Assembly: GCA_965371665.1 (NCBI GenBank)
Contig: CBDUZI010000001.1
Location: forward strand, 9,411 to 73,410
Length of the DNA stretch: 64,000 nt
DNA from: an uncultured bacterium
GTDB lineage: Bacteria > Oederibacteriota > JAAXVQ01 > JAUVAV01
Direction of reading: 5' to 3'
The position numbers and the translations under genes are program-made. The notes under the pieces are model-generated. The model had not been told where the DNA came from and searched no databases. It saw only the letters and a program-made list of their open reading frames with translations. Within the stretch, counting starts at the first letter, position 1. Each line of letters opens with the position of its first letter. This document shows, one piece after another, positions 52,601 through 58,600 of this stretch.

Positions 52601-55600
52601 CCTGTCAAGGTTGTCAGTACCGGCCTTTCAACCGATCTCCTGGTAGAAAGGGTGATATCTGTCATGCGATCACGCCAAGATCGATAAGCGATCGTTAGGG
52701 AGCCATCGTTTTGCAGCCAATAGGTTCCTACTGCTCCTCGCAATTTGGGATCCGCTCTAAACGTACGGACAACTCGCCAAATATTCCGCCTATACAGTCG
52801 GGTGGTTGCTTCATCAGCCGTAACTACCAGCAGCACCTTTTGGGCATTGCAGTCGATGCTTAACGCTGTTTCACGAATAAATTCCATGAGCTCATTGTTT
52901 AAACGCCCGGGATCATTAATCTGTATGACAACTAGCGGACGGTTCACCAGGCCAAAACTGGCTATTTGGATCGGAGAGGCCTGTTCGGCTTGCAAATTAT
53001 CCCCACCAATCTGGCGGAACCGGCCGGCCCTCGCCAGCTGGTAAAGCCTATTATCATCGGCGTTTGCAGGGATCGGCTCAAAGGTCTGTGAAACCCAAGG
53101 TTTCAATGCTTCTGATTCGGCAGTCACTGCCGCTTGTACATCTGTCGGCTCTTTGGCTGCCACCATTTCGGCTTCGGGAACTCGGGTTTCAGGCACAGCA
53201 ATCGGTACTGTCGCCACTGACGCAACCAGCTCGGGTACGGCTTCACCGAAGAAATCCTGAAAGATGGCGGCGGCCATGGTTTTGTATCGCATCAAGGGAT
53301 CTCGGTTTTTCAAAAACATCCTTAAATTAACATCTTCCCTGGTGCTCTCCACCGGATGCAGGAACCTTGCACCCCAAGCCAGGCGCAAAGCAAAGATGAT
53401 ACTTTCGCGCAGCTGATCCGGAGTGCGCTTCTGGGATTGATAACGTAAAGCCGCAGCCCGCACAAGATTTTCCCGGAAATGTTGCCGGGCTTTGGCTGAA
53501 CTGCCCTGCCCTATAACGGATTGATATTGGTCGGCCAGCGCTCTGAGGTCTGCCTGCGATAAGGCAATACCGCGTTCCTGTAGTTCGGCAACCAGCAATT
53601 GAAATCCATTGAGGTCCAGCAACCGTTCCGAAGTTATTTCCGCTTGAATTCTGCGAATCAATTTCCGGCGCAAATCTCCACCTTTAGTTTTGTCTGCCTG
53701 GGCTTGCCGGATAAACGATCGTAAAGAGGTGCTCATATGGGGAAATAGGGTACTAAGGGCCCTAACCATTCCAGAGACTTCCCACTCATACGGATTGGCA
53801 GCCCGCGCATGCATCTCCACGATCAGGGCGGCCCGCCTTTTCAAGGCTCTGCGTAATGCTCTCCGGTTGGTAAAGCGTGCGGTAAGTTCGCCCAAGGTTT
53901 GCTGGATTGCGCCTCGAACAAAGGTATCCAGCTCAGCAGCATCATATTTCTTAACCTGTTGGATTAAAGCGCGGAATTGTTTATCCGCCGAATCCAGCGG
54001 TTGTAAATACTGGTCATTGTAAGCACGCATATCGGCATCCCGCCGGGAAATTCCCCGATGGATACGTCGAATATATTTAACCACGTTCTTACCCAGGGGG
54101 GTGCCGACCAAATTAACCTTCGTGTCACTTTCCAGGCTCTGGACAAGTTTTTTGACGAAATCAGGTGCATAAGTCTGGAAGATATCATCATCCATCAAAC
54201 TGTAGATGAACTGGGCAAACCCGCGTAAACCCTGCCGGGCCACGCGTCCGAAAAGCTGCTCACGCGCGGTCTTGCTCGGCGGAATCTCGGCTTCGATGGC
54301 CAGCATGTCAGGCCCTACGACGTTGAAGCCCAGAGTACCGCGGGGGTTGGTAATGGTAACGACATTAGGCAGGGCCGCGATCTCACGAATGGCTTCAAGA
54401 TTTTTCTGAGTATCGGAAGAAATTTGACAAAGTGTCAGGATCCGATATTGTTCCCTAATACGCTCTTCTGCAGCCTGCCGCGCCTTGGGTTCAGTAATCT
54501 TCGCGGCTTTGGCCATCTGGACGCGTATTGCCTTTCCTTGGGCCTTAGCCTGGGCCACAATGCGGGCAACCTTTTCAGGCGAAGCGCGGGCATCGATGAC
54601 TTCCACCGTTAATCCGGGCTGTGCTCTCAAAGTCTTTAAAAGACTGTGGGTTAAATTCATTAGCTTGCGGGTAGTGTATGTTCCGAGCAAAGTTCCGGCC
54701 AGGGGTCTGTGCTGCCCTATGATCTCCTGCAGGGCCTCGGTCTGATGATAAGGATATAAGTGAATCTGATCGGCATAACGATCCCGGACCAGTGAGAGTC
54801 CGTGGTCCGAAGGCAGGAACAGCGGCTCAAATCCCATGCGCTCGCGAAATTCCTTGAGTTCCTCGCGGTTGCCGATAGTGGCTGACATATAATGCAAATA
54901 GGGATAACGCCGGGCATATTGGGCTATGGTCAGCTGGCTCTGATAGTCGCTGATTCCGGTAAACCGGATGCCGGCCCGGATCGCCGGATTAGTTTCTTCC
55001 AGAAAGGCTTTGGCCTGCAAGGCTTGATGGGTACCTCCCCTGATTTCCTGGCCATGCATGTATTGCCCGGTTAAGCGGTTGTAAAGGACTATAACTCCTT
55101 TAACCAAACCATACTCAATTCTACCCGCTTGTTGCGGTCTGGCGCGCGATTGGCCTTCGGAAAGATTGGTCTGGATGAATAAGAATTGCGCATCCAGCGC
55201 GGTCCGCAGGTAATGCTGCAGGACTGGAAATTCCGTCAAATCCCTCCCTTGGGGTAAACCCAATATGGCTTTTACCCGCGAACGTCCTGCCGGGGTTAAT
55301 GCCGCCAATTTGATATCTTCTTCAATCTTTACTTTGTACAGGTCCGCATCCTCTGCCACCAGCTTAGCAACCTGGGCAAAATATAGTCGTATGACCGCTG
55401 GATTAGAACGGACCAAATCTTCAATTTGCCGGAAAGGCGGCAGGGATTTGAAACCAGCCTGAGCTAAAAGTCTCGGTAGTGCCTCACGAGCCTGGGAACT
55501 TAGCCGGAGCTGTTCAGTCGCTAAATCCATCTCCAACATACCAGGAGTCTCGACGAGAGCTCCTATCAACATTTTAAGCCTCTGGTCCTGAAGCGGTTCC

Positions 55601-58600
55601 AGGACAGGCTGGTTAATCGCCCGCGGAGTACCGGCTTCTATTTTGTGGGTTACATGGCCTTCATCATCAATACGTATAAGGGGTTCCCGCGAATCAACCC
55701 AGAGCTGGTAATCGTGGTTAAAGGCTGCCTCGGTTCCATACGTTATGTCAGCTTCGTAGGCTAAGGCGCGGTCAAAGCTTTTAACCATCTTTTCCCCATC
55801 CCAGATGCTTACCACTGGCTGAGAGCTTTCCAAGTCATACTCACCTACGATGGCCACCGTGATGCCTAGAGGGGCTAGCAGGACTGCCATTTCCTCCCCT
55901 TGTTTAAGGGCTAAATCGATGTTCGGTGTGGACAGTTTAGTGCCTTGATTCAAGAGAGAGACCGCAAAAAGGCCCATGGCCGCGGCCTCGGTCTTGCCCT
56001 GGCCTGTTGCCAGTTGGAGGGCATATCCCACTGTGTCGATAGCCGGAATATCCGAGCGGAAGAGCAGGCGCACGAAATAAAAAACTTTCCTCCAGCCGCG
56101 GCGTTGCCTCATCTCAGAAAGAGCCAGGGCTGCCATGATTTGATTGCGATGCAGGGTAAAGCCTTCCAGCCGGATGCGGCTTTCAGGGTCGGATTCGGAC
56201 GCGGCCTGATCTCGTTTTTGTTTTTCAATGGTCACAGCGGCGATGGTCAGGGCTCGAATTCTTAGCGTTTCCAATGCCTGCTTGGCTTCTGCCAGATCCA
56301 TCCTTTGCAACTGCCTGCGGAGCCGATCGGTTTCCGCAAGCAGTTGAGGGAGGGACATTTTTTCAAATTGTACCCGGAGTTTGTTAACCTGGTTCGCCTG
56401 ATCACGAAGTTTGATCGTGGTTCTGCGTGAGGCAAAGGCCTGGTAGCGGGGCATGGTAAAATGATAGATGAACCAACCTCCGGCAATTAAACCGCTGGCG
56501 ATAAAAAACAGCCATGAGCCCAGGCCGACAAGAACCAAGCCGGTGACCAACCCTGCTGCCAATTGACCAAACTGCACGATCAGATAAAGTGAACTTACGA
56601 CACCGGCTGCCACTACCGGCATGACCAGATACGGCAAAAATCTTCCGGCCAGAGTCCTGAACTGTTTCTGGACTGTCACTAACTCGAGCCGCATCCGCTG
56701 TTCAGCCAGGAGGGCGCGGACGTGATCGATCACTGCGATAACGGCCCCCACTAGAATGAGAATGCAAATGCCCGTGCCTAAGCCTAAGCCAATCGCTTGC
56801 GGCAGCAAGATAATGACCGTTACGATGATGCCTCCCACCACCGGAAGTCTTTTGAAAATTTTGGTAAAATAAGCCTGAGTCTGTTCCCCTTCAGGTATAC
56901 CGGGAATATAATCACCGCTAATGGCAAGCTGCTCGGCCAGGGTCTCGGGCTTGAAAAGCATTCGAGTTCCTAAAACCGAAAAAAGCAGGATGATGGCAGC
57001 CACCACGAACACATAAGTCAAGGTCATAGGCGCGAGGACCACGCCAAACAAGGCGGGGGCTAACATGATAAGCATGGTGATCACAGCGCTCGACCCTATG
57101 GCCGCTACCACGCCAAAATAATCCATTTGTAGGGGCAGAATGCGTTCGCGCGGCTTCTTTTGCTCTGTTTGTTTAACATCCCGCGCCGACCGGATGGAAA
57201 TTTTATAGTATATCGTGTTCAGGGCAATCGCGAGAGCAACGGTGGCCAATCCTCCGATAAGGATAGGCAGACCGGAGAGGGAAAGTACACTGCCAGAAAC
57301 CAAGATTCCAGCGGTGTGAAGCAAATTCGGCAATACCATCACTCCGAACAGAACATAATTGGTCCGGCCGCCCAAGCCGCGCTTCTCTAACTGTGTCATG
57401 AACCATAATAAGACGACAGAGCCCAAGGTCAGACTAATAATCGCGACCAGTTGACTGCCCAAGGTTACAAAAATGTCAGGCATGGCTTGCACGAGCAGTA
57501 CAGCATATATCACTGCAATCCCAACCGAAATATATTTAATGTAGCGCTGGACCTGTTTTCGTCCGATTTCAGTTTTTTGAAGTTTTTTCAGAGGTGGAAA
57601 AACCAGGGTAATGCCCATTATAATCAAGCTAGCTAAGAAAAAGGGAGCCAGTCCCAGGCCGAAGATGGAAAGATTATCCAACGCCCCGCCTAGCATAAAG
57701 TTCATCCCACTCAGCGCCGCCGCATCGTTCAACCTTAGAAAGGTAAATAAAACCGGACTTACGCCTGGAATCGGCACACAGCAACCGATGAAATAAAGGC
57801 CGATAACACCTATTGTAATCAGCCCTCGTCTAACCAACACCCAGGGAATGCCTTGACTAAAGCGACGGAAGTAGATAACCGCATCTTCCTTGGCAGCCTG
57901 CATCCACTCCCGCCAGTTTAGTCTTTGTTCCACGGCAGGTTCCGCCGGCTCCCCGGCGGCGGTTTCCTGAACTACTCTCTGGGACGGTACGCTAGGTGCC
58001 TCTCCGTATATCCGGGTTATTTCCTCAATAGCTTTGGCCAGTTCATCGGGGCGCGAATCTCGAGTACGGAAATCCACAACCAGACGGTTGGCGTCTCTCA
58101 CAATTTTTAACAAAGTCTGGTTCAAAGCGGCTCGATCTACGGTTTCACCTCTGGCCAGATGCTCGTAGAATCTGCCTAACTGGGTAAGTTCGCTGGCCAA
58201 GTACTTCCCGGTTCGCTGCAAATAGGCCAGATAGGCTGAGCGTTCTTCCTCAGAAAAATACGCCATGCCTTCAGCAGTGTGGCCATATAGATAGGTTAGT
58301 TCCTGATCCAACAGCCATGCCTTTTCAACTAGAACGGCTTTTGCCGATCTGGCAATTTGAAGTCTTCCATGTGATTTTAAGTCGCGCAGGCGGGTATTTC
58401 GCGCTTCCCGAAAATCCTGCATGGTCATCCAAACATCCGTGCCTTCTAATTCTATATTGAGTTTCGCTATCGCCATTGCCAGTTCGGACGGCCTCATGCC
58501 CCGGCGCCGAAAATCCACGTTTTGGAAATCCCCTCTGCGGCGGCCGGCATCGAGCGTGATGTGAATCAAGGTTTTATTTAAGGCTGCCCGATCCAGGGCC

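Follow-up and report, generated by a model that had tools for sequence, protein, structure and literature searches.

In a 64,000-nucleotide stretch of contig CBDUZI010000001.1 from an uncultured bacterium (assembly GCA_965371665.1, positions 9,411 to 73,410 of the forward strand; hereafter, the window), a giant open reading frame (ORF) encodes a SecY-like protein channel and, further along the same polypeptide, a SecA-like motor. This arrangement, initially proposed from the sequence without database searches (the original prediction), was borne out: within one 12,729-residue ORF, the SecY-like part comprises residues 2005-2395, and the SecA-like part, residues 2470-3545. The identity, completeness, order, and recurrence of both predicted domains, as well as the retention of the ATPase motifs, are established by sequence comparison and structure modelling. 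With a probability of roughly 0.6, we interpret the module as a Sec translocon that occurs naturally as one chain, set in a giant membrane protein with many passes; the host would be related to FCPU426 (Goldbacteria) and Firestonebacteria, and the module would most likely export the large extracytoplasmic segments of this same protein. Few bacterial proteins are as conserved and as well studied as SecY and SecA, which are separate proteins in characterised bacteria and have been treated as reversibly associating partners.

The first nucleotide of residue i of the giant ORF has the window coordinate 63852-3(i-1), and the ORF and its module are laid out as follows (supporting evidence in parentheses).

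25663-63852, minus strand: giant ORF, 12,729 amino acids, housing the SecY-SecA module
56668-57840, minus strand: SecY-like channel, residues 2005-2395 (Pfam, alignment with Escherichia coli SecY, AlphaFold2, Foldseek)
56455-56649, minus strand: two-helix membrane hairpin, residues 2402-2466, joining the SecY C-terminus to the SecA N-terminus
55618-56445, minus strand: SecA-like N-terminal helices and NBD1, residues 2470-2745 (PF07517, alignments)
55990-56007, minus strand: Walker A TGQGKT, residues 2616-2621, with K2620 (alignments)
55657-55668, minus strand: Walker B DDEG, residues 2729-2732, with D2730 and E2731 (alignments)
54928-55617, minus strand: PPXD-like preprotein cross-linking domain, residues 2746-2975, start expanded (phmmer piece, PF01043)
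54217-54927, minus strand: motif III strand and NBD2, residues 2976-3212 (PF21090, alignments)
54229-54249, minus strand: motif VI GRVARQG, residues 3202-3208, with R3203 and R3206 (aligns with canonical GRsGRQG)
53413-54216, minus strand: start of the scaffold helix and expanded all-helical region at the position of the wing (HWD), residues 3213-3480 (hhalign, profile, AlphaFold2)
53218-53412, minus strand: IRA1/two-helix-finger region, residues 3481-3545 (PF07516, phmmer, alignment of 16 SecAs)
53281-53325, minus strand: two-helix-finger motif LRMFLKNRDPLMRYK, residues 3510-3524 (aligns with canonical LRGYAQ.DP.VEYK)

Channel, hairpin, and motor in one chain

The Pfam search covered residues 1885-3685 of the giant ORF and gave collinear matches to SecY, SecA_DEAD, P-loop_SecA, SecA_SW, and SecA_PP_bind. 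The channel matches SecY (PF00344) over profile positions 1-304 of 306 with E=2.5e-40 (139.2 bits; cut-off, 32.2 bits), the NCBIfam SecY match has E=1.9e-42, and residues 14-419 of the 437-residue E. coli SecY chain align with E=1.3e-34. The housekeeping equivalog model TIGR00967 is not reached (145.6 bits; cut-off, 253.6), and the identity to canonical SecYs is 25-33%. Aligned with E. coli SecY and 24 canonical SecYs, the channel shows the full set of ten membrane helices as well as the plug segment, the plug region GGALDNLSIFGLGLAP being matched by GGALSRASIFALGIMP of E. coli; the periplasmic loops are shorter; and five out of six pore-ring positions (L2068, F2072, T2164, L2168, I2252, I2366) are hydrophobic. 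The AlphaFold2 model of residues 1985-2560, based on an alignment of 73 sequences, has the predicted local distance difference test score (pLDDT) of 85-97 over the core and the predicted template modelling score (pTM) of 0.70; Foldseek superposes it on SecY of Thermus thermophilus and E. coli with target-normalised template modelling scores of 0.76-0.80 (root-mean-square deviation of ~4 Å, ~410 columns). Profile searches and modelling confirm residues 2005-2395 as a predicted full ten-helix SecY, divergent but complete.

Following SecY helix 10, some 62 hydrophobic residues (2402-2466) are modelled as two long helices (model positions 418-458 and 461-513), the second one continuous with the SecA N-terminal helix, at pLDDT of only 51-67. 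The flanks of this hairpin are rich in Lys and Arg (five before, eight after), and the same segment in a distant relative (P0005, see below) forms two clearly separate membrane helices. Two to three extra transmembrane helices had been expected here; the extra segment is present, but a third helix is not, as the model, the charge distribution, and the bipartite homologous segment of P0005 all point to two. A cytoplasmic position of the motor is consistent with the N-in/C-in topology of SecY, the C-terminus of which is cytoplasmic, and with the even number of linker helices; together, these would place the motor where SecA works.

The hairpin also bears on the suggestion that the fusion exists at the gene level only, cleavage of a polyprotein freeing SecY-like and SecA-like proteins that would work as a two-component accessory pair. 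For giant proteins of Omnitrophota, processing has been raised as a possibility, along with peptidase domains of the C39 type (West-Roberts et al., 2023, bioRxiv 10.1101/2023.11.21.568195), but Pfam yields no peptidase domain in the giant ORF at E<=0.01, the modelled continuity of the second hairpin helix with the SecA N-terminal helix leaves no obvious linker, and the hairpin is kept in the relatives. We consider such processing highly unlikely.

The motor matches SecA_DEAD (PF07517) with E=3.8e-14 (53.1 bits; cut-off, 24.6) and P-loop_SecA (PF21090) just above the cut-off (E=1e-6, 28.9 bits; cut-off, 27); the NCBIfam SecA match has E=7.6e-30. SecA_PP_bind (PF01043; E=6e-3, 17.5 bits) and SecA_SW (PF07516; E=1.6e-3, 19 bits, profile positions 84-196) fall under their cut-offs of 23.5 and 26.7 bits in the window; PF01043 is above the cut-off in the relatives P0005 (28.8 bits) and L005 (30.9 bits). 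As with SecY, the housekeeping equivalog models are not reached (PRK12904, 103.7 bits, cut-off 814; TIGR00963, 81.9 bits, cut-off 800). Residues 90-802 of the 871-residue SecA of Thermotoga maritima align with the SecA-like part in five collinear pieces (E=8e-14). The best phmmer piece, T. maritima SecA 273-525, corresponds to PPXD, which agrees with the PPXD-like insert recognised initially, and the piece covering the two-helix-finger region (744-802) is weak (2.7 bits).

The motifs from which the motor had been recognised (TGQGKT, DDEG, TNPRGTLGF, GRVARQG, and LRMFLKNRDPLMRYK) are all found by alignment where they had been placed. Upon alignment with 16 canonical SecAs, the SecA N-terminal helices begin right behind the hairpin, so that the motor starts at residue ~2470 (nucleotide 56445) and not at nucleotide 56360, as thought originally. 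Residues D2730-E2731 align with Asp-Glu of canonical VDEVD, the following EAGTP corresponds to canonical EARTP, and TPNID, to canonical TPNDY; ADITYGT also belongs to the NBD1 alignment. The PPXD core ..TGQ..G.E..GG.HQALQAK is recognisable, motif III YMSATI aligns with canonical GMTGTA, motif V is TNPRGTLGF, the scaffold start FIYSLMDDDIF aligns with canonical FFVSLQDDLM, and F3513 occupies the position of the canonical finger-tip Tyr. In the four-sequence family alignment, GxGK of Walker A is invariant and followed by Thr or Ser; the two-helix-finger motif is kept in the related locus L001.

For the C-terminal third, hhalign against canonical SecA aligned only motif VI and the scaffold start (75 columns, probability of 31%), and therefore the evidence for the scaffold is weak at the level of sequence. 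The profile piece for the region at the wing position matches Bacillus subtilis SecA 507-646. The scaffold and the two-helix finger, collinear but weakly scored, are probably present.

The extra length of the SecA-like part is due to four insertions, i.e., ~45 residues before Walker A in NBD1, ~60 residues at the start of PPXD, a helix of ~85 residues in NBD2, and an expanded all-helical region of ~190 residues at the wing position; the single segment of about 250 residues previously assumed to replace the wing was not observed. The zinc-finger tail of SecA is absent, because the chain continues.

The AlphaFold2 model of residues 2470-3560, built from seven sequences, is moderate (pLDDT 67, pTM 0.35), with the region at the wing position being all-helical (pLDDT ~65-80). 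With this model as the query, Foldseek ranked 35 SecA and SecA2 structures first (E from 4e-20 to 6e-6, mostly with more than 1000 aligned columns), the best non-SecA helicase having E=5.6e-4. In a profile search with the NBD1 region, all of the 120 matches listed carry SecA_DEAD (PF07517), and all are short fragments of canonical SecA (at most 383 residues). These rankings and the SecA-specific Pfam and NCBIfam matches rule out a generic DEAD-box or SF2 helicase, the outcome that a check with SecA-family models had been proposed to reveal. Taking all this into account, residues 2470-3545 are confirmed, by alignment and modelling, as a predicted SecA-like motor that is divergent but full-length and collinear with SecA, the scaffold/wing and the two-helix finger being probable parts of it.

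Recurrence of the fusion and conservation of the motor

When 1.84 billion representative proteins were searched exhaustively with HMMER, residues 2020-3219 being the query, only five matches had E under 1e-30, hence the family is very rare. P0001 (51% identity) and P0002 (41%) span the whole SecY-to-SecA query in one stretch, and P0005 (30%) has SecY upstream of SecA; other matches listed are nearly all ordinary SecYs of ~430 residues with 25-33% identity. The sources are labelled "candidate division FCPU426 bacterium" (P0001), unclassified bacterium (P0002), and, for the cluster of P0005, a genome with the label Pacebacteria. The sequences matching the PPXD/NBD2 part most closely include a fragment from Omnitrophota (P0008).

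Scans of genomes and metagenomes with alignment-based patterns yielded four loci, each with one open frame and SecY upstream of SecA: L001 (the contig of P0001) and L002, both from FCPU426; L003, labelled Firestonebacteria and near-identical to P0002; and L005, from a JGI metagenome. The first genome scan, which used single-sequence patterns, had given no match. Likewise, a word-indexed protein search with the 1,570-residue module gave no match, but the same type of search misses P0001, P0002, and P0005 despite their presence in the collection. Both SecY and SecA Pfam domains score above threshold in P0001, P0002, P0005, and L005. In L005 (Ga0315310_10001458, ORF 3251-11698), a spacer of ~380 residues separates the SecY and NBD1 matches. 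None of the 24 canonical SecA loci fetched alongside has SecY in the same ORF.

Combined, at least six other contigs (L001, L002, L003, L005, P0002, P0005/P0274) have SecY followed by SecA in single frames, at 30-51% identity. The fusion could have been lost in independent assemblies, had it arisen from a chimeric contig or from a stop codon or frameshift missed in gene calling, and one homologous gene is indeed split into at least three ORFs (P0031, P0004, P0003) on an ENA contig of 26,809 bp. SecY is divided over two of these ORFs, with its N-terminal half in one and its C-terminal half, together with the hairpin, in the next; another encodes SecA, and the C-terminus of P0003 diverges as though frameshifted, so this copy could reflect sequencing errors or be genuinely split or decaying. 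On the other hand, the 38-kb frame in the window is uninterrupted and even in base composition, and the same domain order persists in single frames from different samples and assemblers, which excludes an assembly artefact; this explanation is effectively refuted, and we assign it a negligible probability.

The ATPase residues K2620, D2730/E2731, and R3203/R3206 are kept in the relatives wherever the contig reaches them, so the catalytic positions, the loss of which had been named as a possible objection (Walker A Lys, Walker B Asp-Glu, and both Arg of motif VI), are retained across the family. Compared with P0001, conservation is 55% in NBD1, 57% in NBD2, 50% in PPXD, and 54% in the two-helix finger, dropping to 39% in the flanks.

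These conservation data are relevant for the possibility that no translocation takes place at all and the module is a relic or a structural membrane anchor, or its SecA part acts only as an ATP-dependent chaperone or unfoldase. Such a role would be in line with the high divergence of the module (25-33% identity to canonical SecY, scores far under the NCBIfam equivalog cut-offs), the missing Arg of the C5 loop, the Thr in the pore ring, the multiple insertions in the motor, and GKK in place of GKT in Walker A of L005. However, over 30-50% sequence divergence, the family has retained the ATPase motifs, the finger motif, the plug, and hydrophobic residues at five out of six positions of the pore ring; the motor domains are conserved more than the flanks; and the high-confidence model of the channel has the fold of a complete SecY. 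We therefore find a non-translocating module quite improbable.

Proposed export of the protein's own segments and the alternatives

In the favoured interpretation of a dedicated translocon, the covalent membrane tether would replace the lipid- and SecY-loop-dependent recruitment of SecA, the hairpin standing at the place of the amphipathic N-terminus of canonical SecA; with such a tether, the C5-loop Arg and the SecA tail could be dispensed with, which would account for their absence. The outcome would be an obligatory 1:1 motor-channel unit, which would use ATP to push polypeptide through its own channel. The N-terminal helix of SecA is replaceable by an artificial membrane tether, and in E. 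coli the large periplasmic loops of membrane proteins depend on SecA.

The most likely clients would be the large extracytoplasmic segments of the giant protein itself, with the module acting in cis or between copies of the protein. The giant ORF has many hydrophobic helices with soluble blocks of ~190 to 2,500 residues in between, and the part downstream of the module amounts to ~9,000 residues, including several soluble blocks of 300-2,500 residues with membrane helices on either side. In the relatives with an apparently complete N-terminus (P0002 and P0005, which start with Met, and L005, whose frame opens inside the contig), the module begins at residue ~380-1,535 and therefore would be made before what follows.

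Several observations weigh against this interpretation. The first large probable extracytoplasmic block of the giant protein lies upstream of the module, and its export in cis is not feasible, as the module would not have been made by then. This block carries the following domain, the Pfam score of which is E=2.3e-6 (27.7 bits; cut-off, 23.5).

62632-63345, minus strand: GH5 cellulase-like domain, residues 170-407, 5' of the module (PF00150)

The C5-loop Arg of SecY (R357 in E. coli), which has a role in coupling to SecA and the ribosome and is important for SecA activation in E. coli, is replaced by P2320; it is Arg in 23 out of 24 canonical SecYs and in P0005, Pro in P0001, and Ala in P0002. 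One pore-ring position, T2164, is polar. The scaffold and two-helix finger have weak sequence scores (PF07516 under the cut-off, 31% in hhalign), and, with pTM of 0.35, the inter-domain geometry of the motor is not assessable from the model. Walker A of L005 reads GEGKK, although P0005, which is similarly distant, keeps GKT. Hydropathy and the positive-inside rule lack the resolution to place the large blocks of the giant ORF on one side of the membrane or the other. Finally, Pfam finds no SecE, SecG, SecDF, or YidC domain in the giant ORF at E<=0.01. SecE is normally required by SecY.

A stronger version of the same idea is that the translocon is self-sufficient: the hairpin would take the clamp role of SecE (and SecG), and the ~9,000 downstream residues would be threaded in cis, making this an auto-translocating protein. 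We regard this version as tentative and rather doubtful. If it were true, it would be a natural demonstration that one SecY and one SecA make a complete machine; as a corollary, the membrane regions beside SecA in giant proteins of Omnitrophota could be further-diverged SecY of the same origin.

The genes downstream of the giant ORF, on the same strand (window 261-25338, minus), encode a sugar-type ABC importer (a solute-binding protein and two permeases), an OmpA-domain protein, an fn3_5 protein, a 1,738-residue DUF6259 protein, a 1,204-residue SlpA-like protein, and a protein with FlgD_ig/Por-tail-like matches. A similar carbohydrate-import neighbourhood has been described beside giant genes of Omnitrophota (bioRxiv 10.1101/2023.11.21.568195). 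FCPU426, the label of the closest relatives, is taken to be the same as Goldbacteria, which degrade cellulose and are sister to Firestonebacteria (PMC7031533); this fits the N-terminal GH5 domain and the downstream genes for sugar import.

This neighbourhood allows for another possibility, that the module is an accessory translocon for other substrates, e.g., the large secreted or surface proteins encoded downstream, akin to SecA2/SecY2 but set in a giant scaffold. The large ORFs with S-layer-like, fn3, FlgD_ig/Por-tail-like, and OmpA domains on the same strand would be candidate clients, there are secondary NCBIfam matches to the SecY2 and SecA2 models, and an engineered SecY-SecA fusion moves a free substrate. 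Yet the SecY2 and SecA2 scores are far under the cut-offs and lower than those of the housekeeping models (SecY2: TIGR02920, 85 bits, cut-off 249.6, and PRK12417, 92 bits, cut-off 353; SecA2: 37-90 bits, cut-offs 725-1100), and the giant ORF and 16 neighbouring ORFs, scanned with Pfam, contain no Asp1-5, glycosyltransferase partners, or serine-rich repeat substrate. In addition, the contigs of the relatives contain only the giant gene, and the neighbours are not visible there. The model scores and the lack of partner genes in the ORFs scanned rule out the SecA2/SecY2 accessory system as such, and an accessory translocon of another kind seems to us possible but unlikely.

The giant ORF contains one SecY-like and one SecA-like module; a second copy was sought, and none was found. 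Some 10-12 densely packed hydrophobic helices are present at residues ~8460-8861 (window ~37270-38475). This block has neither a Pfam match nor similarity to the SecY profile and is ruled out as a second SecY; it may be another transporter-like domain.

The giant ORF is repetitive: the N-terminal pair of membrane helices (residues 1-101, window 63550-63852) is duplicated at residues 1035-1133 (window 60454-60750) with 59% identity, tandem repeats of ~140 residues follow the GH5 domain, and the start of the GH5-like region (residues 146-244) recurs near the C-terminus (residues 10383-10478) with 33% identity. Further internal repeats are found at residues 460-892, 1645-1946, and 3921-4222 with 5981-6284. 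The permease gene at 24436-25338 has identical copies on short contigs (loci L030-L032; samples ERZ23498918, i.e., ZORZ22-1_SAMN30647028, ERZ25748485, and SRR21487743), and Rfam gave no match in the window.

Comparison with known translocation systems

With canonical SecYEG-SecA, the module shares the channel fold (ten membrane helices, plug, hydrophobic ring) and the motor, i.e., the order of NBD1, PPXD, NBD2, and, probably, scaffold/wing and two-helix finger, the ATPase motifs, and the predicted cytoplasmic side. It differs in being one polypeptide with a membrane hairpin inside a protein of 12.7 thousand residues, in the high divergence of both parts, in the loss of the C5-loop Arg, in the four motor insertions, and in the lack of the zinc-finger tail and of SecE/SecG in the ORF. 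A natural covalent 1:1 fusion would provide evolutionary evidence on the long-debated stoichiometry of the active translocase, and it would indicate which coupling features become dispensable upon tethering, namely, the C5-loop Arg in SecY and both the lipid-binding N-terminus and the C-terminal tail in SecA.

The accessory Sec system of Gram-positive bacteria (SecA2/SecY2) is similar in being a paralogous, dedicated channel-motor pair linked to a very large surface protein from the same locus, but there the two are separate proteins, with Asp1-5 and glycosyltransferases as partners and serine-rich repeat proteins as substrates.

Closer in context are the giant proteins of Omnitrophota and Actinobacteriota, for which divergent SecA_DEAD and PPXD domains have been described (West-Roberts et al., 2023, bioRxiv 10.1101/2023.11.21.568195). 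The scaffold/wing was stated to be missing there, SecYEG to be encoded elsewhere, with no SecY in cis; the adjacent membrane regions were suggested to anchor the domain, and self-export of the giant protein was proposed (bioRxiv 10.1101/2023.11.21.568195). In both cases, a giant multi-pass protein contains carbohydrate-active domains and, beside membrane helices, an internal SecA-like domain that is divergent; the sugar-import neighbourhood and the proposed self-export are also common features. In contrast, the protein from the window has a full SecY in cis and a collinear, albeit weak, scaffold/two-helix-finger region, differs in lineage (genomes labelled FCPU426 and Firestonebacteria), and has 12,729 residues, compared with more than 30,000 emphasised for those proteins. 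A 2026 preprint reports a PF07517 architecture cluster among long proteins of Omnitrophota, with SecY not mentioned. The SecA-only domains reported in other giant proteins are worth re-examining for cryptic channels. For multi-thousand-residue multi-pass proteins, the SecY-SecA module offers a concrete, testable answer to the question of how huge extracytoplasmic blocks are moved across the membrane.

Full-text literature searches yielded no report of a natural SecY-SecA fusion, only the engineered one and the SecA-only domains of giant proteins, in agreement with the initial remark that no natural fusion had been characterised; in the literature searched, the fusion is an undescribed architectural variant of both the Sec translocase and the giant-protein SecA class. 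The engineered SecY-(GGSG)4-SecA protein "SecYA," which lacks the SecA C-terminal tail, translocates proOmpA in vitro, and its activity is not significantly changed by added free SecA or SecYEG (Sugano et al., 2017, PMC5562318). Therefore, a SecY-SecA architecture can work. A naturally stable SecY-SecA unit could serve structural and single-molecule studies, for which such units have so far been obtained only by engineering. SecYA and the fusion described here have the same polarity, from the SecY C-terminus to the SecA N-terminus, the same 1:1 stoichiometry, and no SecA C-terminal tail; SecYA, however, is artificial, depends on SecE and SecG, and is joined by a soluble, flexible linker, whereas the fusion in the window is natural, is linked via a membrane hairpin, and is embedded in a giant protein.

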